Source: Eubacteriales bacterium (lineage in GTDB: Bacteria; Bacillota; Clostridia; Oscillospirales; CAG-272). From it: DNA of 64,000 bases. Where the stretch lies: NCBI GenBank assembly GCA_045657165.1, contig JAZOSP010000067.1, positions 3,268 through 67,267 on the forward strand. Reading direction: 5' to 3'. The position numbers and the translations under genes were made by a program. Numbering within the stretch: position 1 is the first letter of the stretch; each line of letters begins with the position of its first letter. The notes beneath the pieces were generated by a model. The model made no database searches. It had not been told where the DNA came from and saw nothing but the letters and a program-made list of their open reading frames with translations. Positions 1 through 55,823 of this stretch are shown here, piece after piece.

Positions 1-770
1 GCTTTTGAGATGGAAGTTTTGATAGATTCACTATCACTGCCATTTTCAAAGTAATGAACAATAGCAGAAAATGCCTCAGAATCAGCTTTTAATATAAAAT
101 CGTCCGAGTTATTAATGTGATGCTTAGAAAACTCAAGAAGACTCTTTTTGTGTTTTTTCAATGCTTCAACTAATTTGATAGGATTTTTTGTAGCCTTATA
201 TATCACGTTCAATTCAGCATAATGCTTCTCATCCCAAAGGTACTGTAGTACGGACTCTTTACTTTTGATTATACTAAGCACCCCGTCAAAAACAAATTCA
301 GATTCCAAAAGACACAGCGATGTCTCTTTTACAGGAATACTATAGTTTTTAACGATTGTAACATCTTCTTCGGTTAAATAAAACCGATGAACGTCAGATT
401 TCAACATGCTAACGTTTTCCATTACAAAAGCTTTCGGACTAAGCTCTAATATAGCACGGATATATTGTCTAACAAGCATGTTGTTCTGACTAATTGCTGT
501 ATTCTTTTGTCTATTCGCATTTGAAAAACCTTGACAAGGCGGACCACCAATAACCACGTCTATGCTTCCGTACTTACTTTTTATTGCAGAATAGTCCGCA
601 TCGCAAACATTACCCAGAACTTCAACATTGTGATGATTTTTCTTGTAAGTGTCTTGCATATCTGGATTGTTTTCAAAAGCAACTTTTATTTCATATTTTC
701 CTGTTTGCATAAATCCAAGGCTTAAACCGCCCGCACCCGCAAACAAATCAATTACAGAGTATTTGCTCAT
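1..770 (-). CDS. DNA (cytosine-5)-methyltransferase, N-terminal ~256 aa; the 3' end lies beyond the left window edge
   Basis: My own minus-strand translation from ATG 770-768 gives MSKYSVIDLFAGAGGLSLGF...VVIGGPPCQGFSNANRQ...AFVMENV. These are C5-MTase motif I (DLFAGxGG), motif IV (GPPCQGFS) and motif VI (ENV). AGGAGA RBS at 777-782. It is absent from the ORF track because it is open at the window edge. Confidence 0.9.
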   Translation of the reverse strand, partial: MSKYSVIDLFAGAGGLSLGFMQTGKYEIKVAFENNPDMQDTYKKNHHNVEVLGNVCDADYSAIKSKYGSIDVVIGGPPCQGFSNANRQKNTAISQNNMLVRQYIRAILELSPKAFVMENVSMLKSDVHRFYLTEEDVTIVKNYSIPVKETSLCLLESEFVFDGVLSIIKSKESVLQYLWDEKHYAELNVIYKATKNPIKLVEALKKHKKSLLEFSKHHINNSDDFILKADSEAFSAIVHYFENGSDSESIKTSISK

Positions 771-782
771 TCGCCCTCTCCT

Positions 783-2864
783 TTATTCTTTGAAACCATT
801 TGCTTTTGCTTCCTCTAAAAGAGCGAGCAACTGTAAACTTTGATATGCACTTGGAAATTGTGTAGGAATCTTCATAGCGTATGTCATAGCTTTAAGCTGA
901 TCCGGACCTATGCGAACTTTTTTTGACATTACAAACTCATTAACCTTTTTCCAAAAATCAGCACCTAACTCCAAGACTTTTGCTTGCGCTTCAACATCCG
1001 AATATAGTTTCTGTTCTTTTTTCGCTTCTTTTTCAACAGACTTTGAATCTTCTTTGCTAATTAAAACCTTTTCAAATTCTGAAGAAAGTTTTAAGGAACA
1101 TTTTTTAACCTCTTCCCAACAAGCTTCGCGCTTACACCACTGAGTAACGTTAATCGTACCTCTGTGAGGATCAGTAATTGTTTCAAATACAAATTTTGTA
1201 ATTCTAACTAATTCGTTTGTTACAACATCTGGAACTTGCTGCCTGTTCCAAATAAGTTGCAAATCCAAATCCATATTTTTAAACTGCGAAACAATGATTC
1301 GATGAAGCAATGCTATGGAATATGTAACAATGTTTGCTCTATAGCCCTGTTCAAACCACGGCTGATGCGAAACCACCCACTCTGTGTGTTTGAACAGTAT
1401 CGCTAAGGCGATAGAGTCCTTAAAATACTTATCGTTATATCGTGTATCCGACTTATTCCACCCATCATCAATTATTTCTGCAAATTTCATAAAGTTGGTT
1501 TGTGCACCCTTACTTACAACATGAGGCAAACCAGCCCACGAATCTCTGTATTTCGCCAGATCAGTCTTTGTTATAACCTGTTTCTTCGGATTTTGCGCAG
1601 TGAACTTATCCTTCTGAGATTTAGTCATATGCATCTGCGCCTGCAAATACTGTCCACGCGCTCTTTCATAAAACCATTTCGTCTCATACTGAGCGCCTCC
1701 AGACGCAGGGGCAAATATTCTCCTGGAAATTTGCTCCATACGAATGTGGAACGGATGTGTTGCGAAGAAATCTGCATCGCTAACCTTGTTTTGACTGTTA
1801 GACGATCGAGAAATGTTGCGGATGAGCTCGCTTGATTTATCGGCATTAGAATCCACTTCCGTAAGCTTCATCTGAACATAAATCTGTCCCAAATCAGCAC
1901 CGTCTTTATATCGCGCATTAGATAACGAGGCGGTAGTTTGTCCGCCGTTTATAATCTGAAAATCTTTTGCATACGTGATAAAACGTCCATCTGGGGTGGA
2001 TTCAATGTGAAGATCCATTGCTGTTGCAGATACTCCATTATTGTAAGCGAAGAAATTCTGAGGAATGCGAAGTATGGTCTCTCTTATTTTTTTGTTAACC
2101 GCAACTTTTGTAGATAAGAACGATCTAACATTTCCTTCGAGTAATTGGCTTCCGTAAGCATCATAGACGTCTGCCAATGTCTTGCCCGGGATAATGCACA
2201 GATAGCTTTTATAATCCTCGCTATTCGCGCTACTCGCTTCCAGACAAGGTATTCCTTTTCCATCTGTATATGCCTTAAAATCAATTTCTATATCCTGTCT
2301 ACCTAAATCCGAAAAACATACGCGATAAATTCTATCTATATCCCATATCTGGCACTCCACAGGTATTCCATTGTAAGCTTTGGCATCTATTTCGCTTATT
2401 CTATTGCTCATGAAGCCATCGGTAAGTAATAGCAATCTGAATTTACGAATGCGATCTTTATGAAGAACAAGGGATTCGATCAAATCGGCTGCAGGAGTGC
2501 TTGGTTCGATCTCTCTCCGTAGCTTCCCCTCATAAACTTCTTCAACAAAATATAATACTCGGTCAAAAAGTGTTTGAGCATACGTTTTGGTTATTGTTTC
2601 TCGATCTTCGTCGCCAGTGTAATCTGCTATAATCAGATTGAATGTTAGGTCAAATTCATCCAGTACGTAACCATCCACACGTATTTTCCTGCTGTTCTTA
2701 CCAGTCCCTATATAGAATGCCGGTGTGAAATCTGACAACACTTCGGCATTAATTAAATAGCTTGTTGCAATATTTACAAAAGCGGCATTTGAACCAGAGC
2801 CTTCTGTTGCTGCTGTTGCTTTTATTTCTTCCAAAAAATCTTTGTGAAAATCACGTACGTCCAT
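783..2864 (-). CDS. AIPR (abortive-infection phage-resistance) family protein, 693 aa
   Basis: ORF track. The central block FFAYNNGVSATA...QIINGGQTTASL is typical of the AIPR family. An AAGGAG RBS upstream of the ATG overlaps the end of the upstream gene. Only 12 nt separate its stop from the methyltransferase start. Confidence 0.85.
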   Translation of the reverse strand: MDVRDFHKDFLEEIKATAATEGSGSNAAFVNIATSYLINAEVLSDFTPAFYIGTGKNSRKIRVDGYVLDEFDLTFNLIIADYTGDEDRETITKTYAQTLFDRVLYFVEEVYEGKLRREIEPSTPAADLIESLVLHKDRIRKFRLLLLTDGFMSNRISEIDAKAYNGIPVECQIWDIDRIYRVCFSDLGRQDIEIDFKAYTDGKGIPCLEASSANSEDYKSYLCIIPGKTLADVYDAYGSQLLEGNVRSFLSTKVAVNKKIRETILRIPQNFFAYNNGVSATAMDLHIESTPDGRFITYAKDFQIINGGQTTASLSNARYKDGADLGQIYVQMKLTEVDSNADKSSELIRNISRSSNSQNKVSDADFFATHPFHIRMEQISRRIFAPASGGAQYETKWFYERARGQYLQAQMHMTKSQKDKFTAQNPKKQVITKTDLAKYRDSWAGLPHVVSKGAQTNFMKFAEIIDDGWNKSDTRYNDKYFKDSIALAILFKHTEWVVSHQPWFEQGYRANIVTYSIALLHRIIVSQFKNMDLDLQLIWNRQQVPDVVTNELVRITKFVFETITDPHRGTINVTQWCKREACWEEVKKCSLKLSSEFEKVLISKEDSKSVEKEAKKEQKLYSDVEAQAKVLELGADFWKKVNEFVMSKKVRIGPDQLKAMTYAMKIPTQFPSAYQSLQLLALLEEAKANGFKE

Positions 2865-2873
2865 TTTATCTCC

Positions 2874-3800
2874 TTAAATTTTAAAACGGTCAATCGTTAA
2901 AAGATCTAATTCGTATTTTGCGTTATGTACTTCGGGAGGAACATTACCTCTGGTCAACTTAGGGAATCCATCCTTTACACTGTACACTCTTTTTTCCGAA
3001 ATCCTGTATCTCATTTCTTTATAGCGTTCACTATCCTTTAAATAGTATCCACACATGGCTAATTTACAAAGGAATAAATCTGTTGCACCAATGGGTAACA
3101 GTTTTTTTACGTCGTCAACAACTTCCGGAAGAGATAGTGTTTGTACTCCATTTGAAGTAGTCTTGTCCATAAAATAGACAACAAGATGACCGTTATCATT
3201 TCTGTCGAGTTGTTGTAACGAAGAAATTACAACAGTAGTTGAAGCTATTGTTGTCGCCTTAATTTCATTCCAGCTATTTTCGCAGATAAAATCCTGATCG
3301 CTACCCTCGGGGCCAACCCACGAATTTAAAGCCTTTATAGAACCTTCAGAAACCATCAATTCTTTAAGAAATAATAATTCTCCAATAAGTCCTTTTTGTG
3401 CCGAAGGTGAAAGCAATCCCTCACCTCTTTTTTGAAGCAAACGCATCCAACTATTAAAGCGTGACAATATTGTTGCAATCGGATCCAGATTGTTTTGAGA
3501 ACAATCTATTAAATCCCAACATAGCTTGACAAAAAGTTCATTTAATGAAGGATAGTTTAACAAAAAACGAAGCGCGTATTTGCCGTTATCCATCTCCACG
3601 CAACTGGAATTTATTGCTTTAGAAGAAGCAGTTTTTTCCACCTTTCCGGTATCCAAAACCATGAAACACATTTGCTCGCCATAATATCCAATGTGAAAAG
3701 ACAATGGATGATCTCCTGAAACTAGTAAGAATCCTCCGGTATTTGGCGATATACTATCCCATTTTCTCTGCAGTTCATTTATTGTCATATTCGTCATCAT
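2874..3800 (-). CDS. PD-(D/E)XK-motif nuclease-fold protein, ~305 aa
   Basis: ORF track. GPEGSDQDF...WNEIKAT gives a D...(D/E)xK core pattern. Its size and position match the PD-(D/E)XK member that accompanies Z1/AIPR operons. The start is ambiguous (ATG at 3800, 3797 or 3788). It overlaps the Z1 stop by up to 26 nt. Confidence 0.7.
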   Translation of the reverse strand: MMTNMTINELQRKWDSISPNTGGFLLVSGDHPLSFHIGYYGEQMCFMVLDTGKVEKTASSKAINSSCVEMDNGKYALRFLLNYPSLNELFVKLCWDLIDCSQNNLDPIATILSRFNSWMRLLQKRGEGLLSPSAQKGLIGELLFLKELMVSEGSIKALNSWVGPEGSDQDFICENSWNEIKATTIASTTVVISSLQQLDRNDNGHLVVYFMDKTTSNGVQTLSLPEVVDDVKKLLPIGATDLFLCKLAMCGYYLKDSERYKEMRYRISEKRVYSVKDGFPKLTRGNVPPEVHNAKYELDLLTIDRFKI

Positions 3801-6588
3801 CCTCGTCTGTGATGTCTACCCAGTTCTTTAATTCATTGACATTAACCATATAATTTGCTTTTCTTTCAAGTCCGTCTTTCGGGAATCCCAGACCAAGCGC
3901 AAACAAGATATCGGGGTCCTCCGGCGTACGCGTACCTGTCGTATTCTTAAGGATATGTATAAGTGCCAGTGGTCGACGATCTTTAATCAAGTACGTCCGA
4001 TCGTTAATTTTTTCATTGTTTGCTTTGCTTTTTGCACGCAAATCATCGATTGTATCTTTAGACAATCCAATTTTTGAGCAACCACCCGTACCAACTCGAA
4101 CGTGATGTCCGTTGACTCGTATAAGATTTGTAATCGGCTTGTCCCACTCCAACTGTCTGCCTTCCGGTTTTATAGACAAAACACGATCTATTAAATCAAC
4201 ATCTACTTCCGATTCCTCTGAGCCCTGTGGTATAGCGACATCCCAAAAATCAAGGACCTTTTCGTCTTCAGAAATATAATCCGCTAACGCAATTGGTTGG
4301 AAATTCAAGTTCCATGGATGCGTTGAGAATCCACGAACTAAATCTATAATTGCTTTTTTAGGTACACCTTTCCAAATATGAGCCTTTGTATTAACATCAT
4401 ACTCGTAATGTATGCCCTCATATGCCGAAAGACCTTGAATAAATGAACGACACAAATCTTCGTTCTGCTTCAACGTTTGCTTATCACCTCTAAGACGAGG
4501 TGTTTCAAGCATACGTCCTGAAACAGTTATAGGTCGGGAAACGGAAGTTGCTGTACGCATCTTGTTTCTTGCAGTTATAAGAAGCGCACCGGGTGCCTGA
4601 CGTACTTTTAATCCAAATTCCTCGGGTGTTTGGTTTTGACGTTTCATTTTGCGCAATTCGTCTTTCAATTCGTTTACTGCATCGGTTATATATCCATACC
4701 AGTCAATTGCTTCCTCGCCCATCCAAACCTTGAACAAATCATCATAATTAGGACGATATCCAAACCATCTGCCCATCTGCAAAAGAGTATCATACATCAT
4801 CGTATTACGATAAAAATAGCTAACGCACAACCCTTCTAGAGTCAGACCTCTAGACAAACTATTTCCACCAACTGCAATAACACGCATACCAATGTTTTTA
4901 TACTCGTAATAATTGAGAGAAGATGCTCCGTGTTGCTGGTTAACTGAACGTACTTCTATACGCTTCGCTGCCTTGTACAAGTATTCTTCAAGAAGAACGT
5001 GCCATTCAACCCCTGCGAGATCTTCAAGTTCATATTTTTCCCAAACTTCATGAAGCATAGAAATACTTGTGATTTTCATTGCTTTTTCTAAAGGCAATGA
5101 AGAATAGTTTTCCAAATCTGCTTTTATTTGATCTAAAAATTCATCTATCAAATCAGCTGTTCTATTTTGAACTAATGTAAACCTGCTAACGTTTACCAGC
5201 ATAGATCTATGCTCGGTCGTATCTTTTCTATAATCGCAAATAGCTGTCGTAATCACAAAATAGCGAATCGCTTCTTTCATGCTATATGGAATATCATATA
5301 ATTCGTCGGCTAAATCTTTTTTATGTTTGAATACAAAGAAATCGTCCTGTTCGTCATTATAAATCGGTATTATCGCTTTGCCATAAACACCTTCGCATCG
5401 TGTGACGGCGTTTCCATTCTCCCAGTTATCGGCGTCGCCATTACCAAAGATTTTATCTGCGCCAATGTATAACTCTGGTGTAGGCAATACCGTCAAAAAG
5501 TCTTTAGGAAACAGATTTTTGGTTGCTTCATCAGTTTCCGATTCCGGATTAATAAAAATATTAGCAAAAGGCGTTGCTGTAATACCTAAATATGAAGCCT
5601 GCCTAAAGCAATTCAATATATCCCTAATTGCTTTATTAATAGCTGTGGGATCTCTTTCTTCGGAATTGGTATTCACAGAAGCATTATCAGCCTCATCATC
5701 TATGAGCAGAAGAGGCAGATCTATTAGACCGTTTTCATAATCTGCGTTATTTTCCATTAACCATTTGTAGAGATTATTAAGAACACTTTTGTTCTTTTTT
5801 ACAACGAACAAAGCCGTTCCATTTAACGTCCTCAAACTAAGCCCCAACGCACGAAGCGTAGTCTTGTTGAAATCAGTTGCAACAGATGTAAAACACGCAA
5901 TTCGTTTATCGGGATTGCTTGGAGGTATTTTGCCAACACCTACAGGTTTATTCTTTATCTCGTGATCCGCTTTCTTGTCGAGAGTATATTTACTCTCTAC
6001 TCCCACAAACTCCGCATCCAGACGTTCTTGAGTCTGAACTCGAAGGTTTTCCATCATACCTGCAAGAACAATAATAACACGATATCCCGCATCCGAAGCT
6101 TTGTTACAAATAGCAGTATATGTTGCAGTTTTTCCCGACTGAACATCTCCAAGAAGCAAACCTCTTCGTTGGAACGGACGTTTGTGATCTTTGGGATTTC
6201 CCAAATCATCCATTACATCGCTCGATGTTTTATTCAAACGATTAACAACATCAACGCCCCAATGTTTTACAACCTTAAGGTAGGTTTTGTATCTTTCCCA
6301 ATAAAAACCATCATTCTCTTGAACGTGATACCAAGACTGATGCTCAGCATCTCTGCCACGCAACGTAACAGCAAAACCAATAGTATGCAAAATGTTTGTG
6401 GCTAACGTTTTCTTAATCTGTACAAAATCATCATCGCTGACGGGATACAATACATTGAAAGCTTTGCGCATAACCTCGGCTTCTTCATTAATTTGCTCCA
6501 ACGTAGGTAAAGAATCCCCATATTTTCTATTAATTGTTGCAGTTACCGTATCAACAATATAATGCATATTTTCAGTCATTGAATTCAC
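3775..6588 (-). CDS. Z1-domain protein (SF2-helicase-like NTPase), 937 aa
   Basis: ORF track. Walker A GDVQSGKTATY and a DEAD-like Walker B LLLIDDEADNASVN sit in the N-terminal half, followed by a long C-terminal region as in Z1-domain proteins. It overlaps the upstream ATPase gene by 17 nt. Confidence 0.85.
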   Translation of the reverse strand: MNSMTENMHYIVDTVTATINRKYGDSLPTLEQINEEAEVMRKAFNVLYPVSDDDFVQIKKTLATNILHTIGFAVTLRGRDAEHQSWYHVQENDGFYWERYKTYLKVVKHWGVDVVNRLNKTSSDVMDDLGNPKDHKRPFQRRGLLLGDVQSGKTATYTAICNKASDAGYRVIIVLAGMMENLRVQTQERLDAEFVGVESKYTLDKKADHEIKNKPVGVGKIPPSNPDKRIACFTSVATDFNKTTLRALGLSLRTLNGTALFVVKKNKSVLNNLYKWLMENNADYENGLIDLPLLLIDDEADNASVNTNSEERDPTAINKAIRDILNCFRQASYLGITATPFANIFINPESETDEATKNLFPKDFLTVLPTPELYIGADKIFGNGDADNWENGNAVTRCEGVYGKAIIPIYNDEQDDFFVFKHKKDLADELYDIPYSMKEAIRYFVITTAICDYRKDTTEHRSMLVNVSRFTLVQNRTADLIDEFLDQIKADLENYSSLPLEKAMKITSISMLHEVWEKYELEDLAGVEWHVLLEEYLYKAAKRIEVRSVNQQHGASSLNYYEYKNIGMRVIAVGGNSLSRGLTLEGLCVSYFYRNTMMYDTLLQMGRWFGYRPNYDDLFKVWMGEEAIDWYGYITDAVNELKDELRKMKRQNQTPEEFGLKVRQAPGALLITARNKMRTATSVSRPITVSGRMLETPRLRGDKQTLKQNEDLCRSFIQGLSAYEGIHYEYDVNTKAHIWKGVPKKAIIDLVRGFSTHPWNLNFQPIALADYISEDEKVLDFWDVAIPQGSEESEVDVDLIDRVLSIKPEGRQLEWDKPITNLIRVNGHHVRVGTGGCSKIGLSKDTIDDLRAKSKANNEKINDRTYLIKDRRPLALIHILKNTTGTRTPEDPDILFALGLGFPKDGLERKANYMVNVNELKNWVDITDEDDDEYDNK

Positions 6589-8038
6589 CTTTTTCTTTCG
6601 CGTGGTCTATTTCTTCACTATACGCACAGAATGGCTCAGCTAGTTTTAGCGCTTCTATAGTAGAGTAGCGCTCTTCAATGCTCGCCTGTTGCATCACTAT
6701 AGTTTTTACAAGTTCAATTATTTCTTTTGAAGCCATATCACTATCATTTGCTAGTTTTTCGTCATTAGTTAAATCAATATAAAGAGAGTTCAAAGGCAAA
6801 GACATGCTTATCTGCTTCAAGAGAACATCCAGTTTCGAACGTATACCTGGATATTCTTGAACAATATCTTCTATCATAGGATAATCCGGATTGATTTCAT
6901 AAAAAATACCACCGTCACGAGAAACCATTCTGTTCCACATATGAATAACGTCATCTCTCGTTTCTTTTTTTCCGCGGTATGTCCAAGTCCGTTTGCTACC
7001 TTCAGAAATTTTTTCAATGATTACACCTAGATTTTGCTTTACATCCTCTGGAGGTGTTGCTGTTGATTTTTTAATATCTAGCGTCCATAAATCATCAAGC
7101 GAGTTAGGTATATCAACTTGCACTCGAGCTAATTTCGACAAATCTCCCTGGCGCATCAAACGAAACCATGTGCCCCAAACCAGAAGTCGCTTATTTCTAT
7201 ACACATAAAACCCTTGTTGCTTCCTTAATCCTTCTTTTCCACCCAGATCCTTAAGTTCTTTTTGAGTCAACTTAGAAACATGTGGCAAAATATAAGGCTT
7301 AACTTTTACTTTTGCACCTCTAACAACAATTGTTTCTTCATCCATAAGTTGCGTGCTTTTTTTAATCAAAAACGGATCTTGTGGAACGATGCTCATATCA
7401 TTCATACGAATATCCAACTTTTTTAACCCAGTTTCACCGCTTAAATAACGATGAAACACCAAGGAAAGATGTTCTCGTATCAAAGACATTTTCCTTGTGA
7501 AAGCTTCAGCTATATCATTTTCTCCAACCGCGAATTTATCCAACTCTTGCCAAATAACCAACGTTCCATTTTCTAAAGACGTTAATTTGGAATAACTAGG
7601 GTAACTATTGAAATCCGAATTTTCAAGAATGATAAGAGACCACGACTCTGCATGCTTCACGTGATCCAGATTCCATTGAGCACCCGAAACTCGACCGTTT
7701 TGCTTCGTAATCACGGTTAAAACTCTACATTGAGACAAAGATGCAGTCTTCATTCCAAGTCCGTATCTACCCAAATCATCTTCATCTCTTTCATCCAATG
7801 GATCTCTGCTACCATACTGCATGGCGGTTATAAGTTTTTCTTCAGTCATGCCATGTCCATCGTCAAGTATCGATATATAAGACTCGCCTATCGGAAAGAA
7901 ATCAATATCTACTCGTCCCGCTTTTGCAGCTACACTATTATCAACAATATCAGCAATCGCAGCTTCTATGGAGTAGCCAATAGCACGAGTGGATTCCATA
8001 AGAGTCGGCGCATACGGGGGCATATCTTGGCATCTCAT
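6572..8038 (-). CDS. GHKL-superfamily ATPase (MORC/MutL-like, HATPase_c_3-type), 488 aa
   Basis: ORF track. Bergerat-fold N-box AIADIVDNSVAA and G1 box ILDDGHGMT lie near the N-terminus. An AAGGAGA RBS is 7 nt upstream of ATG 8038. Confidence 0.8.
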   Translation of the reverse strand: MRCQDMPPYAPTLMESTRAIGYSIEAAIADIVDNSVAAKAGRVDIDFFPIGESYISILDDGHGMTEEKLITAMQYGSRDPLDERDEDDLGRYGLGMKTASLSQCRVLTVITKQNGRVSGAQWNLDHVKHAESWSLIILENSDFNSYPSYSKLTSLENGTLVIWQELDKFAVGENDIAEAFTRKMSLIREHLSLVFHRYLSGETGLKKLDIRMNDMSIVPQDPFLIKKSTQLMDEETIVVRGAKVKVKPYILPHVSKLTQKELKDLGGKEGLRKQQGFYVYRNKRLLVWGTWFRLMRQGDLSKLARVQVDIPNSLDDLWTLDIKKSTATPPEDVKQNLGVIIEKISEGSKRTWTYRGKKETRDDVIHMWNRMVSRDGGIFYEINPDYPMIEDIVQEYPGIRSKLDVLLKQISMSLPLNSLYIDLTNDEKLANDSDMASKEIIELVKTIVMQQASIEERYSTIEALKLAEPFCAYSEEIDHAKEKGEFND

Positions 8039-8060
8039 ATATTTTCTCCTTAGCTATAAA

Positions 8061-8273
8061 TCAGTATTTGTTAGGAACAATCTCTACAATGTCATCCATC
8101 GTACATTCAAGTGCAGTGCATATTTTCACGAGCACATCACTCGATATAGTCGCACCATCTTTCTTCATCTTAGCGATGGTCGCAGGACTAACACCTGCCT
8201 TGGCAGCAAGTTCCTTGCTCTTCATTTCACGATCAATGAGTAATTTAAAAAGTTTCTTATAGCTGGCAGCCAT
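8061..8273 (-). CDS. XRE-family helix-turn-helix transcriptional regulator, 70 aa (controller-like, first gene of the operon)
   Basis: ORF track. MKSKELAAKAGVSPATIAKMKKDG is a classic HTH_3 segment, and the C-terminus LECTMDDIVEIV is typical of small Cro/C1-type regulators. GAGGTGA RBS. Confidence 0.85.
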   Translation of the reverse strand: MAASYKKLFKLLIDREMKSKELAAKAGVSPATIAKMKKDGATISSDVLVKICTALECTMDDIVEIVPNKY

Positions 8274-8312
8274 ATTTCACCTCATAAAAATAAAAGTTTT
8301 TATACATATACT

Positions 8313-8341
8313 ATTTTACTACTTTAATCGACAAATTGCAA
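8313..8341 (-). promoter_or_regulatory. Candidate sigma-A promoter for the HTH-led defence operon
   Basis: Minus strand reads TTGCAA (8341-8336), a 17-nt spacer, then TAAAAT (8318-8313), about 40 nt upstream of the HTH start codon. Confidence 0.4.
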
Positions 8342-8699
8342 GAGTTTTTGCAGAACAAATTACACGATCGCTAAATTTCTTATACTTGCGTAAATTGTGG
8401 CGTTCCTATCAATGATATAGGAACTAATATATCCGTTCCGATGGAAATGATTGAAGCAAAAACCTCTCTTCTTTGTTTAGTGCTGATCAAATTTTTCTCC
8501 ATTAGGCAGGGGCGTTGCTTTTGTATTTCGAGACTGATATTTGTGTTATGTGTAATGGCAGTATCGGCTTCATTTTAAATTGGTAATTTATATGTTCCTT
8601 TTTCTACTTTCATTTGTTATTGATAACCTAAATTAACATAAGTGTATTTTAAATGTCGAAATTTGTTTGAAAAGTGTATCATTTTTATAATAATAATTA

Positions 8700-8728
8700 T
8701 TGAAAAGTGTAAAAATATGTGTTATAAT
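8700..8728 (+). promoter_or_regulatory. Candidate sigma-A promoter of the AAA+/DUF4143 gene
   Basis: TTGAAA (8700-8705), a 17-nt spacer, then TATAAT (8723-8728). GGAGGAG RBS at 8750-8756 and ATG at 8763. Confidence 0.55.
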
Positions 8729-8762
8729 ATTATTGAAAACTGTATTATTGGAGGAGAAATCT

Positions 8763-10115
8763 ATGCTTTTTAGAAAAATCGAAAGGTTCATCAGAGAATA
8801 TTTGACTTCAGACAGCAACAAAATCTTAGTGATTGACGGTGCACGTCAGATTGGTAAATCATATATCATCCGCGAAGTTGGAAAAGATCTTTACAAAGAA
8901 AACTACATTGAAATAAACTTCGTCGAAGATAAGCAGGGGCCTCAGCTTTTTAAAAACATAAACACTATTGAAGATTTTTACTTCACGCTTAGCACTATCG
9001 CTGGCGAAAAAATGAAAGGCAAAGAAAACACCTTAGTATTTATCGATGAGATTCAAGTATATCCTCAGTTTATCACTCTGCTGAAATTTTTAAAACAAGA
9101 TAATAAATATACGTATATTGCATCTGGTTCTCTCTTGGGAGTTACTCTCTCCAACATAGGATCTATTCCTATTGGATCAATGGAAATCAAGAGAATGTAT
9201 CAGCTTGATTTCGAAGAGTTTTTGATTGCCAACGGATTTTCAAAAGAAGCAATCAAAATTCTTGAAAACAAATTTTTAGCAAGAGAAACTCTTGACGAAG
9301 CAATGCACGACAAGTTGCTGGATTTGTTTAAGAAATATTTAATTGTCGGCGGACTTCCTGATGCCGTAAATGAATTTTTAAAAACAAGAAACGTTGTTGC
9401 TATACGCAAAATCCAAGAAGACATAAAAACATTTTATGGAGAGGATGCGTCTCAATACGATATTGAGAACAAATTAAAAATCAAGCGTATATACGATTAT
9501 ATTCCATCGGTTATGCAGAACACCAAAAAACGCATCGTGGCAAAAGATATAGAAGGCATCGTCGGAAAACGCTTTGCAAACTATGTTAATGAATTTGACT
9601 ACTTGATTTCTTCCGGAATAGCACTCGAGGTTAAAGCTATTTCCAATCCCGTTTTTCCTTTAATTCAATCAGCAGATAAAAACCTTCTCAAACTTTATAT
9701 GAACGACGTAGGTTTGCTCTCCGGTATTTTGTATAACAATAACGCAAAACCGATTCTTGAAGACGTGCGATCAGTTAACCTTGGTGCTCTTTACGAAACA
9801 GCAGTGGCAGGCCAACTTAAAGCTCTCGGCCATAAACTCTTTTATTACGATAACAGAAATAATGGTGAAGTTGATTTTATGATTGACGATTACGATAATC
9901 TTGCGGTTCTTCCTGTAGAAGTAAAAAGCGGAAGAGATTACACCACTCACAGTGCGCTGAATCATTTTATCACCAATGATAACTATCCCGTTAAAGCCGG
10001 ATATGTTTTATCAAATGAAAGAGAAATTAAAACCGTAGGCAAAATCACGTACTTCCCTATATATTTCGTAATGTTTCTTAAACCAATATCAAGCGCTGAT
10101 GAGGTCTTGATATAA
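8763..10115 (+). CDS. AAA+ ATPase with DUF4143-type C-terminal domain, ~450 aa
   Basis: ORF track frame 8700..10115. I moved the start to ATG 8763 (MLFRKIERFIREY...) because of the strong RBS. Walker A VIDGARQIGKSYI and Walker B LVFIDEIQ. The overall layout is typical of the COG1373-type ATPase. Confidence 0.8.
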   Translation: MLFRKIERFIREYLTSDSNKILVIDGARQIGKSYIIREVGKDLYKENYIEINFVEDKQGPQLFKNINTIEDFYFTLSTIAGEKMKGKENTLVFIDEIQVYPQFITLLKFLKQDNKYTYIASGSLLGVTLSNIGSIPIGSMEIKRMYQLDFEEFLIANGFSKEAIKILENKFLARETLDEAMHDKLLDLFKKYLIVGGLPDAVNEFLKTRNVVAIRKIQEDIKTFYGEDASQYDIENKLKIKRIYDYIPSVMQNTKKRIVAKDIEGIVGKRFANYVNEFDYLISSGIALEVKAISNPVFPLIQSADKNLLKLYMNDVGLLSGILYNNNAKPILEDVRSVNLGALYETAVAGQLKALGHKLFYYDNRNNGEVDFMIDDYDNLAVLPVEVKSGRDYTTHSALNHFITNDNYPVKAGYVLSNEREIKTVGKITYFPIYFVMFLKPISSADEVLI

Positions 10116-10142
10116 AATCATATTTTATGCCTTGAAACAAAG

Positions 10143-10190
10143 AAAAGCCGATGAAGATTGTATGGTTCTTCATCGGCTTTTCTTTGTTTT
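10143..10190 (+). terminator. Rho-independent terminator
   Basis: A perfect 14-bp stem, AAAAGCCGATGAAG (10143-10156) with CTTCATCGGCTTTT (10168-10181), has an 11-nt loop and is followed by a T-rich tract. Confidence 0.8.
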
Positions 10191-10537
10191 GTGCTGACCA
10201 TTTTTCGAGTAGCAGACGCTTTTTAAACTATAGCTTTTCTTCTTTCAAAGGCTATATGTTTTTTGAAAGAAAGCAGAAAAACACCTTTGCAAAACCGCTC
10301 TAAATGTTTACATAACGGAGCGCATCTTTTGTCTGTAATAACGCTGTTTCTTACTAAAACAACTAATCTACATTTTTCCTTTATACCTCTAATTTTGACA
10401 CCAACGAATTCTGTAATATACGGAAATAACGGAAAATTTACTACAAAACAACACATTTTACTAGAAAATATGGAAAATTTGCAACGCAAAGTTTACAAAA
10501 TACGCTTATCGGTCCGTTGGGGTGGTAGAGGCCGCAA

Positions 10538-10561
10538 GTTCAAGTCTTGTCACTCAGACCA
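10538..10561 (+). repeat. Left 24-bp direct repeat (attL-like core), tRNA-3'-end-like
   Basis: GTTCAAGTCTTGTCACTCAGACCA is repeated exactly at 16133-16156. With the preceding GCAA it reads as a T-arm (GCAAG/TTCAAGT/CTTGT), a 7-nt acceptor strand, a discriminator and CCA. The matching 5' acceptor strand CTGAGTG is not present upstream. Confidence 0.75.
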
Positions 10562-10670
10562 AAAATCCGCGAGAGCGGAACACAATAGGTTGATTAAATC
10601 AATCGTATTATCACTATATTTAGTGGTTTTATGGTTATTTAGTCAACCTTTTTTGTTTTCTCTTTCGGGG

Positions 10671-10694
10671 CGAGTTGCAAAAAAAGTTGCAAAA
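10671..10694 (+). repeat. Tandem GTTGCAAA motif, left-arm copy (candidate recombinase arm-type site)
   Basis: CGAGTTGCAAAAAAAGTTGCAAAA lies 110 nt inside the left core. A near-identical copy (1-nt indel) at 16008-16029 lies 104 nt before the right core, in the same orientation. Confidence 0.5.
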
Positions 10695-11062
10695 CCCTAC
10701 ATCGAAGGAATAATGACAAACTTTTTTGCAGATTTTGCCCAAAATCCTAACGCATTTTCAAAAAGCGCGGTTCTAAAAAAGAAAAATAGTCTCCTTGTCT
10801 TGATTGATTTTTGAAACATTCCTTAAAGGTTTTCGGTAAACACCGCAAAGGGGGGAGTTGTCGGTTACGGTACTATAAGGGGAAACCGCAACGGTGAGTA
10901 CATTATATAGTACGGTGAACGGTCAAGTCTATACAGACGGAAACGGGTTGCGGTGTTTGCTACTCTTACTGAGGGTACACCCACGCACACCGACAAACCA
11001 CGCTATAAAAGCGGAAACCACAAAAATCACATTCCCCCATACGGAAAGAAAGGACACAGAAA

Positions 11063-12217
11063 ATGAACACTACGAAAAGCAAAGCACACACGGGACGAGA
11101 ACGCATAGAACGAAACATAGCAAGAGACAGAAAAACGGGGCATTATCTTGTCACGAAATATTGCGGTTACAATGACAAGGGTATTCAAAGAACAACCGTC
11201 ACTTGTCAAACCCTCAAAGAGGCGCGATACATAAGAGAAACACACGAAATCGAACGCAAAAAGTACGGAATGACAAGTTCTAATACACAAATTACCGTAG
11301 CAGAATGTATAGAACAGTATATCGCAGAAAAAAACCTTGCAGAAACAACCAAAGACAATTATAATACGCGCCTAAAGAGAATAGTCAAACACCCTCTCGG
11401 CAAGAAAAAACTTGTTTCCGTAAAAAAGATTGACATAACGCGCTATATGGGCGAAATAGAACGAGAGGGACTTTTGAACAATAGAAGCATAAACGGGGAT
11501 AGGCGCTTATTACAAACGATTTTTAATTACGCAATAGATTGCGGTTACGTTTCACAAAATGTTGTTAACACCGTTCCCAAAATGCAAGAGGAAACATTTG
11601 AAGGTACGGCATTAACCAAGGAAGAAGTACAAACCCTAATGCAAGCAATAGACGATTGCCAAGACAAACGCCTAAAAGTTATTGTTTGTCTCGGTGCTCT
11701 ACAAGGTATGCGCAGAGGTGAAATTTTAGGGTTGAAATGGGAAGATATAACTACGGGGGCAGACGGTTCAAGAATATCTATACAACGGGAGAGAGTACCC
11801 GTAATAGGAGCAACAATCATTGAAAAAAGTCCTAAAACAAAAAACAGTCGCAGAACAATTCCCTTGCAATCTCAAACACAACGAGCGTTGGAAGAATACC
11901 GCTCAACACAAGCAGAATTAGGAATTACGGGAGAATACATAGTATTGTCAAACAAAGGATTGCCTATAAGTCCTACACGAATAAACAATATGTTCAATCA
12001 ATTTCTCAAACAAGCAGGATTGCAACACATACGGCTGCACGACCTACGACACACTTGTTGCACGCTACTGATTGAACACAATGCGGGTTTTCCCGTAGTA
12101 TCTAAATATTTAGGTCACTCATCATCACGCACTACGGAAAGAGTTTATACACATTTGCGCGATAGTGTGACAGATAACACCGTAAGCATATTTACGGATA
12201 TTTTCGGGGATATGTAA
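11063..12217 (+). CDS. Tyrosine-type site-specific integrase, 384 aa
   Basis: ORF track. GMRRGEILGLKWEDI (box I Arg), HDLRHTCCTLL (H-x-x-R) and LGHSSSRTTERVYTHL (catalytic Tyr). The N-terminal SAM-like domain carries ...TVAECIEQYIAEK. Confidence 0.9.
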   Translation: MNTTKSKAHTGRERIERNIARDRKTGHYLVTKYCGYNDKGIQRTTVTCQTLKEARYIRETHEIERKKYGMTSSNTQITVAECIEQYIAEKNLAETTKDNYNTRLKRIVKHPLGKKKLVSVKKIDITRYMGEIEREGLLNNRSINGDRRLLQTIFNYAIDCGYVSQNVVNTVPKMQEETFEGTALTKEEVQTLMQAIDDCQDKRLKVIVCLGALQGMRRGEILGLKWEDITTGADGSRISIQRERVPVIGATIIEKSPKTKNSRRTIPLQSQTQRALEEYRSTQAELGITGEYIVLSNKGLPISPTRINNMFNQFLKQAGLQHIRLHDLRHTCCTLLIEHNAGFPVVSKYLGHSSSRTTERVYTHLRDSVTDNTVSIFTDIFGDM

Positions 12218-12446
12218 CGCCCACTTCCCGACAGAACCGCCAAACGTGCAATCTCAAAACCATTGACTATAAGGAAACTTTGCAAGGGGCAAATAAAACC
12301 GTTTGGTAAAATAGGCGTATATAGACACCGCTACCCGTCCCCACATTCCCACCACTACAAGGAAACTATAAGCAAAACACGGGTTGGCGGTGATACGAAA
12401 AAAGGGATTTTCCCGAAAAAGGCACAACAGAAAGGAGAGCGCAAAA

Positions 12447-13562
12447 ATGACACACACCGCAGAGTTACACATAGCAATCACCCCCGAAGAACACCGCGCA
12501 CTAATCGAGCGAAAAGACAAACGGTGGGAGCGCGACAGTGACGGCAATCTGCATTGTCATATCCGCACGTTAGAACCCTACGGAATAACCGATATCAAAC
12601 CAAAGAAAGCAAAAACACGGAACGGTTTTCCCTATTATTTTTGTATTGTTATAATCAATTTACAACGCATTGTAAACAACGGAAAGCGCACAATAGAAAC
12701 ATATCATAACGAGAGGGATTTTGAACCCTTATCAATAAACTTTGCTAAATTTATTTCATCGGTTCTCCCTCTCCGCACTGACTTAAACGAGTGGAGTTTA
12801 CAAAGAATAGATTATAATATTGACTTGAAGCTAACACCCCGTGAGGTTGAGCAATATATAACCCTCTTACAACGTGGGGGCAAAAATCATAGTTGGCACG
12901 TTCACGAATTTGCAGACGAGGAAAAGAACCGCAAGGAAAGCAAACACGGACACCGAAAGAAAACACACCCTACGGGGAGCGTACTATTCGACAATAAACA
13001 ATACTCTGTAAATATCTATAACAAGCACTTGGAGCGGTTAAAGGTTCAAGAGGAACGAGGGAAAACCGACACCGCAGAATTAAAGGCAAGCGAGGGGGTG
13101 CTACGGATAGAAATTCAAGTCAAAAAGAATAAGTTAAACGCCATAAAAAGAAATATCAAAAGCGACTTTGATTTTGACGGAAAACCCATTGAATATTTTG
13201 CACGTTATGATGTGGCAGTCCCTATTGTTATGAGGGCATTGGAAGATATAACGGGTAGAGCCGATTATAGCACCTTTGAGACCGCCAAAAAACGCGTTTT
13301 GAGCGGTGTAAAGACCAAGAGAACACAAACGGCTATCGTTGATTTTCTGCGCCTTGTAACGCACACAAAGAGCCTTTGGAGAGCCAAGGAATTGTTTGAG
13401 GGTGATATAAAGGCAGAAACGATTTTAGAGCATTTGAAGCGGTTAAACATTAACCCCGTAACAATACCCGTATCATTCAACCGTGATATTATGGATAATC
13501 TTTTTGATATTGTCGCAGTGCAATTTGCAGAGGAACGAGAACGCGCCACAGTAACAGTATAG
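12447..13562 (+). CDS. Rolling-circle replication-initiator-like protein (Rep_trans / phage gene II-X-like), ~371 aa
   Basis: ORF track frame 12384..13562. I moved the start to ATG 12447 (MTHTAELH...), preceded by an AAAGGAGAG RBS. The pattern WSLQRIDYNIDL ... VNIYNKHLE ... GVLRIEIQVKK resembles the R.D..D / iY.K..E / lR.E block order of RCR initiators. This call rests on memory of the family pattern only. Confidence 0.45.
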   Translation: MTHTAELHIAITPEEHRALIERKDKRWERDSDGNLHCHIRTLEPYGITDIKPKKAKTRNGFPYYFCIVIINLQRIVNNGKRTIETYHNERDFEPLSINFAKFISSVLPLRTDLNEWSLQRIDYNIDLKLTPREVEQYITLLQRGGKNHSWHVHEFADEEKNRKESKHGHRKKTHPTGSVLFDNKQYSVNIYNKHLERLKVQEERGKTDTAELKASEGVLRIEIQVKKNKLNAIKRNIKSDFDFDGKPIEYFARYDVAVPIVMRALEDITGRADYSTFETAKKRVLSGVKTKRTQTAIVDFLRLVTHTKSLWRAKELFEGDIKAETILEHLKRLNINPVTIPVSFNRDIMDNLFDIVAVQFAEERERATVTV

Positions 13563-13803
13563 AACCCTACAAGTTCTAAAATATAAATAGAGATACGAAA
13601 AACGGGCATTTTAGGAGCAAAAAAACATTGAAAGTTCCCACTATAAGGGGTGTTTCTTGAAATCGTTTTAGAGATTAAAAAATTCTCTTGTGAAATTAAG
13701 AAAATCGCTTCTTTTTCCTCTGTTTTTGCCAAAAATCCGAAAGGAACGCTAAATAACAAGCAAAATATTAAGAAAATCACCACTACAAGGGGAGTTTTCG
13801 AGA

Positions 13804-14232
13804 ATGTATAGAGAAAGGGAAAATCTTATGAAAAAATCGGCTTTAATGGTACAATGTGAAGCAAGTAACAAATACAATCCGTACATATTATCGCGCTATC
13901 TAACGAGAGAGACAGACGGAACGGTTATTGTTGACCGCACAAAAGCCACACAAAACAAGGACGATGAGCGTTTATTTTTGGTGGTTCTTAATCGTGAATA
14001 TTTATGGAGATATAGGGACTTTGAACACGTTACAATGTATTTTGAAATAGACGGCAAAACGGTTGTCGGTGGAGTATATAACACTCGTACAAAAGAACGT
14101 GAAACACAGTGCGTTATTGCTACGGAGATTGGCGAAGGTAAAGCATACGATTGGCTTTGTTATTCATACAATGCCGACACCTTGAACAAAATTATAGGGG
14201 CAATACAGAACGCGCCACAGAGGGCAAAATAA
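13804..14232 (+). CDS. Hypothetical protein, 142 aa
   Basis: ORF track. An AAGGGGAG RBS lies 8 nt upstream, and an alternative start exists at MKKSALM. I recognise no family. Confidence 0.5.
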   Translation: MYRERENLMKKSALMVQCEASNKYNPYILSRYLTRETDGTVIVDRTKATQNKDDERLFLVVLNREYLWRYRDFEHVTMYFEIDGKTVVGGVYNTRTKERETQCVIATEIGEGKAYDWLCYSYNADTLNKIIGAIQNAPQRAK

Positions 14233-14305
14233 AGCCGTTAGAGCGCGTTTGAGGATTTATCGAGGCACAGAGCAAGACAATAAGAACGCCTTTTGTGAGG
14301 CATTT

Positions 14306-14333
14306 GAGAGGGCATTTCAGCCCTCTCTTTTTT
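14306..14333 (+). terminator. Rho-independent terminator between convergent genes
   Basis: GAGAGGGC (14306-14313) pairs with GCCCTCTC (14320-14327) around a 6-nt loop and is followed by TTTTTT. The hairpin overlaps the last codons of the convergent recombinase gene. Confidence 0.55.
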
Positions 14334-15006
14334 CGTCCTTTAACTCTGCCTTGTATTTATAAAAACTGTTACGGGATATTCCTGCGAGCTTGATACATTC
14401 CGCATCGGATAGTGTACCGCCAAAATCTTTGGAATGTGTACGGATAATCTCTTTTGCTGACACGCTTTTTTTAGTGGTGAGTTTTACCCCCGTTTTGCCA
14501 CCGATTTGTTTACCGTTCAAACGAGCCGTAACAATTCCCTCTCGGGTTCTTTGGTGTAAATCCTCAACCTCCTTCTCTGCTTGTTCAAATGCAAGGCGTA
14601 TTTGCTCTTTTGCGAGTTCTAACAAATACTTATTGATACCCTCTAAAATGTAGTCAACCGCTGTTCCCGTCATTGGTACGGAATTCTGTATTGCCCTTTT
14701 ATATGTTTGAGTGTTTATTTGCGGTTCTTTAAGAAATACAAGGTCTATATTACGATTGTATAACATTTCATATACCGCAAAACCCTCATCGGCATTTCTT
14801 GACATACGGGAAACGGAGTCAAAAATAATGGTGTCTCCCTCTTTTACATTTTTCATCAATCTATCCCAAGAGGGGCGCGTGAGTGTTGTTCCCGTGTATT
14901 CGTCTTGTAGAATAACCGCAGAGGGATATTCACTTTTAATATTACGGATTTGTCTTTCAATATTCTGTTTCTTTGTTGATACTCTTGCATAACCATATTG
15001 TTTCAT
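14317..15006 (-). CDS. Serine recombinase (resolvase/invertase family), 229 aa
   Basis: ORF track. The N-terminus MKQYGYARVSTKKQNIERQ carries the catalytic Ser. DSVSRMSRN is also present, with a C-terminal HTH (LAGISRNSFYKYK). AGGGAGAA RBS. Confidence 0.9.
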   Translation of the reverse strand: MKQYGYARVSTKKQNIERQIRNIKSEYPSAVILQDEYTGTTLTRPSWDRLMKNVKEGDTIIFDSVSRMSRNADEGFAVYEMLYNRNIDLVFLKEPQINTQTYKRAIQNSVPMTGTAVDYILEGINKYLLELAKEQIRLAFEQAEKEVEDLHQRTREGIVTARLNGKQIGGKTGVKLTTKKSVSAKEIIRTHSKDFGGTLSDAECIKLAGISRNSFYKYKAELKDEKREG

Positions 15007-15039
15007 TTTTCGTTCTCCCTTGTCTTAAATCGAACCTTC

Positions 15040-15129
15040 GTTCGTTTTGGTACTGTAATTATAGCACAACGAAAACGGTTTGTCAATAGGTTTTGGTACA
15101 TTTTTTCAAAAGGTTCGTTTTGGTACTGT
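15040..15129 (+). repeat. Direct repeats containing TTTTGGTAC, upstream of the serine-recombinase gene
   Basis: GTTCGTTTTGGTACTGT occurs at 15040-15056 and again exactly at 15113-15129. A shorter copy, GGTTTTGGTACA, lies at 15089-15100. A fourth TTTTGGTA sits at 15307-15314. Confidence 0.6.
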
Positions 15130-15226
15130 CGAGGGGGGTATTTTACAATCTCAAAAATAACCGCAAACAACAATCGCACCGTGTCACTCTCTTTCACTCT
15201 CACGGGGAGAAATCCCGAAATCCATA

Positions 15227-15255
15227 TTGACATTTACGGGGTTTTGATGTATAAT
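15227..15255 (+). promoter_or_regulatory. Perfect-consensus sigma-A promoter
   Basis: TTGACA (15227-15232), a 17-nt spacer, then TATAAT (15250-15255). It lies ~180 nt upstream of the zinc-ribbon gene. Confidence 0.65.
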
Positions 15256-15261
15256 ATGAGC

Positions 15262-15415
15262 ACCACACATTTTTGAATATATGCCCATTTCAAGGGGGAA
15301 TACTGCCTTTTGGTAAAAACGTATTCTCTCACCCTTTGACGTGGGCAAAAATGTGTGGTAACATTGAGAGGTATGTTTTTCGGTGTGTCTCTCAATGGGG
15401 CACACTTTTTTATTT
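15262..15415 (+). promoter_or_regulatory. Structured 5' leader or small RNA: long hairpin plus alternative antiterminator/terminator
   Basis: A 14-bp perfect helix pairs ACCACACATTTTTG (15262-15275) with CAAAAATGTGTGGT (15346-15359) and encloses nested helices. CATTGAGAG (15362-15370) then pairs with CTCTCAATG (15389-15397). That pairing competes with the terminator stem 15383-15391/15397-15405, which is followed by TTTTTT (15406-15411). Confidence 0.45.
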
Positions 15416-15434
15416 GATAAATAGGGGGTAAACT

Positions 15435-15953
15435 ATGAATAATAACGAAAAAGATAATTTGCCTAAATGCTCAAAATGCGGAAACACAGTATTTTCCAAC
15501 ACTTGCCCATACTGCCATACGCAAGTAATTGAGGACAAAAGAAGCACACAAAAGAAGAAAGAACACCCACTCAAAACTATTCTTTTAATTGCGTGGGTAA
15601 TCATTCTTATAACGGGTATTGTTCTATTTATACCTATGCTTATTTCTCCCTCGCTTGTCCTTGCTGGAATAGAGATATTCTGCATTATATTTGGTTTTAT
15701 TCCCCTGATTTTTATGTGTCTCAAATCGGCTACACCGCAGGATTGGGAAAACTTGAAAAAAGGTGCTCAAACACCGCCAAAAATCCAACCGCTTACAAAA
15801 GACGGAACGGAAATTCATTGTCCGACTTGTGGTTCTACGGATATCGAAAGAGTATCACTTACTACAAAAGCCGTAAACATTTGGGCGTTTGGTTTGCTCG
15901 GCAATAAACGCAACAAACAGTTCAAGTGCAAAAACTGTAAATATATGTGGTAA
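15435..15953 (+). CDS. Zinc-ribbon membrane protein, 172 aa
   Basis: ORF track. N-terminal CSKCGN...CPYCH and C-terminal CPTCGS...CKNC Cys4 pairs flank two hydrophobic helices. RBS AGGGGG. Confidence 0.65.
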   Translation: MNNNEKDNLPKCSKCGNTVFSNTCPYCHTQVIEDKRSTQKKKEHPLKTILLIAWVIILITGIVLFIPMLISPSLVLAGIEIFCIIFGFIPLIFMCLKSATPQDWENLKKGAQTPPKIQPLTKDGTEIHCPTCGSTDIERVSLTTKAVNIWAFGLLGNKRNKQFKCKNCKYMW

Positions 15954-15971
15954 CATCTATTACTTATGGGA

Positions 15972-16000
15972 TTGACAATATCGAAATCACGTGATATAAT
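15972..16000 (+). promoter_or_regulatory. Perfect-consensus sigma-A promoter pointing out of the element's right end
   Basis: TTGACA (15972-15977), a 17-nt spacer, then TATAAT (15995-16000). There is no ORF between it and the right repeat. A second promoter-like TTGCAA-17-TATAAG lies at 16023-16051. Confidence 0.6.
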
Positions 16001-16007
16001 AATAACG

Positions 16008-16029
16008 CGAGTTGCAAAAAAGTTGCAAA
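16008..16029 (+). repeat. Tandem GTTGCAAA motif, right-arm copy
   Basis: CGAGTTGCAAAAAAGTTGCAAA is the partner of 10671-10694. Confidence 0.5.
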
Positions 16030-16132
16030 CGCACATCTCCCCCACTATAAGGAAACTATCTTAATCAACCTTTTTGAGTGTAAAAATCAAAACATTCCAC
16101 TATATGGAGACTATATAAACACAGTGATTTGT

Positions 16133-16156
16133 GTTCAAGTCTTGTCACTCAGACCA
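16133..16156 (+). repeat. Right 24-bp direct repeat (attR-like core)
   Basis: Exact copy of 10538-10561. The sequence upstream of this copy does not complete a T-stem. Confidence 0.75.
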
Positions 16157-16244
16157 TATCGAGTGTTCATAATCCACTTGAGTTGTTGGCTCCCTTTATT
16201 TTTTGGAGTCAAGGTTTTATAGCTTAAAAGCTCAGTTTTTAAGC

Positions 16245-16287
16245 CGTATAAAAAGAGTAGCGGCGAGATTTCTCTCGCCGCTACTCT
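16245..16287 (-). terminator. Rho-independent terminator of the isomerase gene
   Basis: A perfect 15-bp stem (16254-16268 with 16273-16287) has a 4-nt loop. A TTTTT run follows on the minus strand. Confidence 0.8.
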
Positions 16288-16301
16288 TACTTCGTATAGC
16301 C

Positions 16302-55766: not shown

Positions 55767-55823
55767 TTGGGTTTCCTCGAATTTTTTTCCTATCAAAATT
55801 TTTATTTTTTAGTCACGCACGTT

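Follow-up and report, generated by a model that had tools for sequence, protein, structure and literature searches.

A minus-strand operon at the left edge of the window analysed here (64,000 nucleotides of contig JAZOSP010000067.1 from an Eubacteriales bacterium, positions 3,268 to 67,267) probably encodes an ATP-dependent restriction-modification (R-M)-like system. Judged from its sequence, the locus is Mza-like by homology but is not a canonical Mza: it is a member of an already described clade in which relatives of the Mza core proteins are linked to a C5 cytosine methyltransferase. The R-M-like interpretation is favoured because of (i) the families and motifs of the encoded proteins, (ii) their homology with Mza, (iii) the linkage and exchange of the methylase and (iv) a context of mobile-element and defence genes.

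Listing of the open reading frames (ORFs) and translation of the window revealed six co-directional minus-strand genes, preceded by a promoter-like site:

8313-8341, minus strand: promoter-like site TTGCAA-17 nt-TAAAAT, 5′ of the XRE gene (consensus scan)
8061-8273, minus strand: XRE gene (70 aa), at the operon head
6572-8038, minus strand: GHKL ATPase gene (488 aa)
3775-6588, minus strand: MzaC-like gene, between the GHKL and DUF4420 genes
2874-3800, minus strand: DUF4420 gene (308 aa)
783-2864, minus strand: AIPR gene (693 aa)
1-770, minus strand: C5 methyltransferase gene, with 256 N-terminal codons visible, which exits at the window start

An earlier note, made from the letters of this DNA, had proposed that these genes form a single operon. 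The junctions that it gave were recomputed and match: the genes overlap at 6572-6588 (17 nt; 8 nt if an ATG start is used) and at 3775-3800, and are separated by gaps of 22 nt (XRE/GHKL), 9 nt (DUF4420/AIPR) and 12 nt (AIPR/methylase). Shine-Dalgarno-like sequences are present 5′ of the XRE (GAGGTG), GHKL (AAGGAG) and methylase (GGAGAGGG) genes. In the operon interior, promoter- and terminator-like sites were not above shuffle expectation (17 promoter-like sites, compared to 25 expected), so that a single transcript is the simplest reading. The packing and common direction of the genes likewise support the proposed operon.

The encoded proteins were compared with profile hidden Markov models (HMMs) of Pfam, with the PADLOC models and with the NCBIfam equivalog models NF041932-NF041935, which have curated cut-offs. 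This analysis recovered all the families named in the earlier note (XRE, GHKL, Z1, PD-(D/E)XK, AIPR and C5 methylase). Its statement that the operon contains no canonical Type I-III subunit was also borne out, as no HsdR/HsdS/HsdM, Res/Mod or Type II endonuclease family was matched in the operon. The four core proteins match the PADLOC models of MzaB (2.4e-80), MzaC (9.3e-118), MzaD (8.5e-20) and MzaE (4.2e-77). Their NCBIfam E-values range from 1.7e-31 to 1.1e-150, with bit scores that reach about one third of the equivalog cut-offs: 331.9 bits compared to 850 for MzaB (the GHKL protein; E 4.6e-99), 503.3 compared to 1500 for MzaC, 109.6 compared to 420 for MzaD (the DUF4420 protein) and 333.8 compared to 1050 for MzaE (the AIPR protein). 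No MzaA homolog was found: the XRE protein at the operon head has no MzaA match in PADLOC (E <= 0.01) and only generic XRE matches in NCBIfam. Since the scores lie below the equivalog cut-offs, MzaA is absent and a methylase is linked, the locus was placed in a methylase-linked sister clade of Mza, and its core proteins are not regarded as equivalogs of the canonical ones. The label “Mza-like” used in the earlier note thus holds as far as homology to MzaB-E is concerned, but does not extend to identity with canonical Mza.

A plain canonical Mza (MzaBCDE), with the methylase as an unrelated orphan or Type II neighbour that takes no part in the system, would explain the matches of all four core proteins to Mza models. 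It would also agree with reports of Mza as a five-gene system, for which the available text of the sources (PMC9523054, PMC11551731) lists no methylase. This explanation is nevertheless improbable, given the lack of MzaA, the roughly threefold shortfall of all four proteins from the equivalog cut-offs and the constancy with which a C5 methylase accompanies the core genes across phyla.

This linkage was surveyed by phmmer, in which the window proteins were searched against all ORFs of 80 relative loci (77 from genome contigs, plus others including L007, the closest relative of the window locus), 73 of them with adequate flanks. A C5 methylase is present within 5 kb in all 73. In 65 loci it was detected by phmmer within 1.5 kb, and in two it lies 2.4-4.7 kb upstream; the remaining six, all scored as methylase-less by phmmer, contain a Pfam DNA_methylase gene directly after AIPR. 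The methylase often overlaps the cassette or lies within 20 nt of it, and its placement relative to the core is as follows:

Downstream, same strand: 37 loci
Upstream, same strand: 22 loci
Opposite strand: 12 loci
Same strand, 2.4-4.7 kb upstream: 2 loci

The order of the core genes is constant in every complete locus among the 80, which come from many phyla; co-occurrence across genomes was a check proposed in the earlier note. As the methylase shifts in position, strand and subfamily while the core stays the same, it appears to be an obligatory but exchangeable partner. Loci L039 and L049 illustrate this: their methylases are 64-67% identical to that of L007, whereas the core proteins are 30-48% identical, and this combination of similar methylases with divergent cores points to methylase exchange.

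No signal of co-variation between the core and the target-recognition domain of the methylase was found in L039 and L049. Within the long-insert subfamily this domain shows good conservation, and phylogeny confounds the comparison between subfamilies; the search for a core segment co-varying with it was dropped. In three unrelated loci (L040, L042 and L047) the methylase matches downstream of AIPR consist of two consecutive ORFs, of about 305 and 475 aa, which represent the parts of a C5 methylase that is naturally split or else two methylases in tandem.

The visible part of the window methylase (Pfam DNA_methylase, 8.7e-32) contains motif I (FAGAGG), motif IV (PPCQGFS, with the catalytic Cys) and motif VI (ENV). 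It aligns gap-free with the first 256 residues of the L007 enzyme (529 aa), at 81% identity; the gene is therefore shortened by the window edge and not biologically. Related methylases are 529-536 aa long; motifs VI and VIII are separated in them by a largely variable insert of some 170-180 residues. Inference of the target specificity from solved enzymes was abandoned: the best match, the uncharacterised methylase 3g7u (4.8e-30), covers only the catalytic motifs.

The GHKL protein (Pfam HATPase_c_3, 5.7e-34) is a MORC/MutL-like, MzaB-like ATPase. Its residues N34, D59xG61xG63, G90/G93/G95, K97 and K324 are conserved in 100% of 76 homologs. The SF2 helicase contains the motif D600-T-L-L-Q-M-G-R-W-F-G610, corresponding to the C-terminal DThhQXuRhFG; D600, L602, Q604, M605, R607, W608, F609 and G610 are invariant, and G606 nearly so, in 19 diverse sequences.

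Two proteins of the operon are candidate effectors. The DUF4420 protein (Pfam DUF4420, 3.2e-63) belongs to the MzaD-like PD-(D/E)XK nuclease family, and its residues E141, D170 and E179-x-K181 are present in 76/76 homologs; F279-P280 is also invariant. D170 and P280 are probably the equivalents of D187 and P297, mutated in a preprint on MzaD. DUF4420 is the fastest-evolving of the core proteins, with a mean column identity of 0.43 compared to 0.56-0.60 for the other three. It is most likely the DNA-cleaving effector: it is favoured over AIPR because its E-D-ExK residues are invariant and because MzaD has been shown to be a nuclease, the purified E. coli protein cutting DNA in vitro (preprint 10.1101/2022.06.16.496414).

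The AIPR protein is MzaE-like (Pfam AIPR, 2.8e-97; AIPR_N, 2.7e-41) and begins with an N-terminal domain (approximately residues 1-185), followed by the AIPR core, in which polar motifs are invariant, and by a C-terminal tail that is helical. The invariant core residues (L242-E-G-N-V-R247, F271-F-x-x-N-N-G277, Q303-I-x-N-G-G-Q-T-T-A312, K333, N356/Q358, D365 and W397-x-x-E-R401) fit no recognised nuclease signature. A possible likeness of NGGQTT to DGQQR, a motif of DUF262/ParB-like domains, was sought by a lenient Pfam scan of AIPR, which gave no match, and an exact-protein look-up of the window AIPR returned no record.

An AlphaFold2 (AF2) model of AIPR, based on 58 homologs, has a mean predicted local distance difference test (pLDDT) score of 79.6, with low confidence precisely at the invariant loops. 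A Foldseek search of this model against the PDB gave nothing at E <= 0.001. Among the weak top matches (E 0.07-1.6), the sole coherent group comprises the PD-(D/E)XK domains of FokI (probability 0.98), McrC, MspJI and Can2, aligned over about 160-175 columns. When residues 186-600 were re-modelled alone (pLDDT 78; predicted template modelling score 0.65), the nuclease matches vanished and nothing above noise appeared instead. This loss in a model without residues 1-185 suggests that AIPR_N probably adopts a restriction-endonuclease-like fold. Semi-conserved residues of this domain in 75 sequences are D64 (71), D/E81 (63), E/D120 (74) and K/R141 (70). For the core, a solved relative was detected neither by sequence nor by Foldseek.

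The properties of AIPR bear on another explanation, namely an abortive-infection or toxin-type system in which infected cells are killed or arrested by AIPR or the nuclease, and the methylase, instead of marking self, serves for epigenetic regulation or as an antitoxin-like safeguard. The name of the family (abortive infection phage resistance), a PADLOC AbiU match on AIPR residues 238-424 (1.7e-21) and a core with invariant polar residues that matches no known fold are in line with it. Yet the E. coli mzaABCDE system is reported to protect without growth arrest, whatever the multiplicity of infection, and phage DNA was cleaved by MzaD (preprint 10.1101/2022.06.16.496414); moreover, an obligate methylase combined with an SF2 ATPase and a nuclease of restriction endonuclease fold is an R-M-type signature (PMC2292703). 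A system of the abortive type is thus considered unlikely.

According to the preferred R-M-like reading, the methylase would write 5-methylcytosine (m5C) at a target motif on host DNA, thereby marking self, and the four core proteins would engage, as a complex, incoming DNA that lacks the mark. The two ATPases would sense and track the DNA; the GHKL protein, like MutL and MORC proteins, would form an ATP-driven dimerising clamp through which recognition is coupled to cleavage, or would serve as the looping factor proposed by Iyer et al. The cut would be made by DUF4420, while AIPR might serve as a second nuclease-fold subunit or as a recognition or regulatory subunit. Expression of the operon would be set by the XRE protein, in the manner of an R-M controller protein.

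Several observations weigh against this scheme. The 3′ half of the methylase gene, with anything that follows it, lies outside the window. Canonical Mza is described, in the available text of PMC9523054 and PMC11551731, as working without a methylase of its own, which implies that m5C is not an intrinsic requirement for the core machinery to leave the host unharmed. Among the core proteins, no domain that would read DNA sequence was recognised. Finally, DUF4420 is wholly missing from two loci (L013 and L065); AIPR therefore stays a candidate cutter, and cleavage may not depend on DUF4420 alone, or may not require it.

The 70-aa protein at the operon head is of the XRE/Cro-C1 helix-turn-helix (HTH) type (Pfam HTH_26, 2.8e-18; HTH_3, 7.5e-10; PADLOC matches to HTH_VI, RmrA, capH and similar models). 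Homologs are located directly 5′ of the GHKL gene in L007, L022, L036, L039 and L041, and 5′ of a methyltransferase-GHKL gene pair in L051. Since a homolog at the operon head occurs in only 5/77 loci, plus L007, the XRE protein is accessory to the system.

It is likely to be the transcriptional controller of the operon. The promoter-like site upstream of its gene, whose edge coincides with the end coordinate of the locus in the earlier note (8341), is inferred to function as a promoter: its -35 and -10 hexamers and the subsequent GTATxTGTATAAAAA are conserved with the homologous upstream region of L007. A 13-nt direct repeat (8331-8343 and 8355-8367) overlaps the -35 hexamer, where the sequence TTGCAATTTGTC is also kept in L007. 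This conserved sequence and the repeat are at most suggestive of the controller role; a clear C-box palindrome was not found in the promoter region.

Farther 5′ of this promoter, a block of about 85 nt (8408-8492, minus strand) is conserved with the L007 upstream region and contains a GGAAC...GTTCC palindrome (8408-8451). It overlaps a 40-aa ORF (8380-8502) that lies 5′ of XRE. Because of a frame-shift in L007, this ORF was not accepted as a gene, and the block probably represents a non-coding element or what remains of a gene. In L039 and L051, a strong promoter-like site is separated from the start of XRE by a GC-rich hairpin with a T-run behind it (ATGCTCTGCC...GGCAGAGCATTTTT). This hairpin, which could be a terminator or attenuator, is absent from the window.

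Analysis of the GC profile showed values of 0.33-0.43 over positions 1-16000 and 0.44-0.56 in the rest of the window, in keeping with the AT-rich block reported in the earlier note. The shift at about 16 kb is likely the right end of a low-GC island, the left end of which lies outside the window. The remaining features of the island, and the large ORFs beyond it, are:

8700-10115, plus strand: ATPase with AAA_14 and DUF4143, divergent from the operon; PADLOC candidate PDC-S01 (1.6e-172)
11063-12217, plus strand: tyrosine integrase
14317-15006, minus strand: serine resolvase
10263-10814, 12384-13562, 13804-14232 and 15435-15953: ORFs without a Pfam or PADLOC match
17312-20545, minus strand: large ORF (1077 aa) with Big_3 repeats, in the normal-GC part
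31384-39450, minus strand: large ORF (2688 aa), in the normal-GC part
48123-55796, minus strand: large ORF (2557 aa), in the normal-GC part

The true start of the AAA_14/DUF4143 gene is probably an ATG near 8763. Three 16-nt direct repeats (ATTATTGAAAAGTGTA), exactly 33 nt apart, are located 5′ of this gene (8663-8744) and overlap promoter-like hexamers; they may be operator sites. The three large ORFs in the normal-GC part probably encode surface proteins. The window contains no tRNA genes, and an Rfam scan of positions 1-17000 gave no matches. Megablast of the operon and of a core-genome stretch against E. coli genomes was likewise without a match, so the window does not come from E. coli; a core ABC-transporter permease, looked up as an exact protein, matched only metagenome contigs.

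Relatives of the operon also occur within defence islands and adjoin other defence or mobile-element genes. In L007 (13703-17748), genes for an SLFN-g3-type helicase, a NUDIX protein and a reverse transcriptase directly follow the methylase, and in L001/L002 (1-8419) TIR/SEFIR, Type I HsdR-like and Fic genes are found upstream of the operon.

This setting is relevant to two further explanations. A methylation-directed DNA repair module, in which a MutL-like ATPase, a helicase and a nuclease serve the cytosine methylase (cf. mismatch or very-short-patch repair), has in its favour the weak MutL matches of the GHKL protein and the suggestion of Iyer et al. that some MORC operons were perhaps recruited for repair (PMC2292703). 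Its probability is minimal: the operon is carried on a low-GC mobile island beside defence candidates, its patchy distribution across phyla is consistent with horizontal transfer, the homologous Mza protects against phage (preprint 10.1101/2022.06.16.496414), and the portion of the operon that falls inside the window has no Vsr or mismatch-recognition gene.

The operon might, alternatively, be a decaying, non-functional remnant carried by the island. Genes are indeed split in some relatives (GHKL in L001 and L010, AIPR in L022), and only half of the methylase is seen here. It is very unlikely that the window copy is such a remnant, since each of the five complete ORFs has the full length of its homologs, every invariant catalytic residue is retained, and the shortening of the methylase is due to the window edge.

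The locus adds no new architecture; it is an intact example of a widespread, known operon type, and will not surprise a specialist. The family to which it belongs is very abundant, structurally unsolved and experimentally tractable. Strict linkage of the methylase sets the clade apart from canonical Mza and offers a clean starting point for experiments. The eukaryotic MORC chromatin proteins are believed to descend from bacterial ATPases of the MORC type (PMC2292703), and the coupling of a MORC ATPase to DNA methylation, once worked out, would be of significance beyond phage defence.

Among known systems, canonical Mza provides the four core homologs. Named as a validated system in the available text of PMC9523054, and attributed there and in PMC11551731 to Gao et al. 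2020, mzaABCDE is reported to protect E. coli against T4 containing cytosine (C), hydroxymethylcytosine (hmC) and, more weakly, glucosylated hmC (ghmC) (preprint 10.1101/2022.06.16.496414). Both systems possess a GHKL/MutL-like MzaB (the PADLOC match, indicating homology only, spans profile positions 6-489 of 500), a PD-(D/E)XK MzaD (match restricted to residues 93-303 of the DUF4420 protein) and the AIPR protein MzaE. The first of the five canonical genes is described as encoding a sigma-factor-like protein, MzaA, in place of which the window operon has the XRE HTH protein, and the methylase, not listed for canonical Mza in the available literature, follows AIPR here.

The window locus exactly fits, by its sequence features, two earlier descriptions. 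The methylase-linked operon was presented by Iyer et al. 2008 as the third type of MORC operon (PMC2292703), comprising a MORC GHKL protein, an SF2 helicase with DThhQXuRhFG, a novel protein of restriction endonuclease fold with E-D-ExK and often DCM and AIPR; shared here are the GHKL protein, the SF2 motif D600-G610, E141/D170/E179xK181, DCM and AIPR. That description is purely computational and older than the name Mza, and proposes DNA looping by the GHKL protein. In the available text of Miller et al. 2022 (PMC9523054), the same architecture is termed a putative “type II” system, and is reported to go uncalled by both PADLOC and DefenseFinder. Nothing substantive differs from it in the window locus, although individual PADLOC HMMs do match the proteins.

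Comparison with controller-protein R-M operons, which have a small XRE gene at the head and operator repeats at its own promoter, gives a mixed picture: the window operon is headed by an XRE gene and has a direct repeat over the -35 hexamer, but a clear C-box palindrome was not found, and XRE is missing from most relatives. Type I and III R-M systems have their own HsdR, HsdS, HsdM, Mod and Res subunits and an N6-adenine methylase, whereas the window operon lacks these subunits, has a C5 enzyme, carries its nuclease on a separate polypeptide and contains a GHKL ATPase and an AIPR protein that have no counterpart in them. Common to both are a methylase, an SF2 ATPase, a PD-(D/E)XK nuclease and mobility and, probably, a function gated by methylation.

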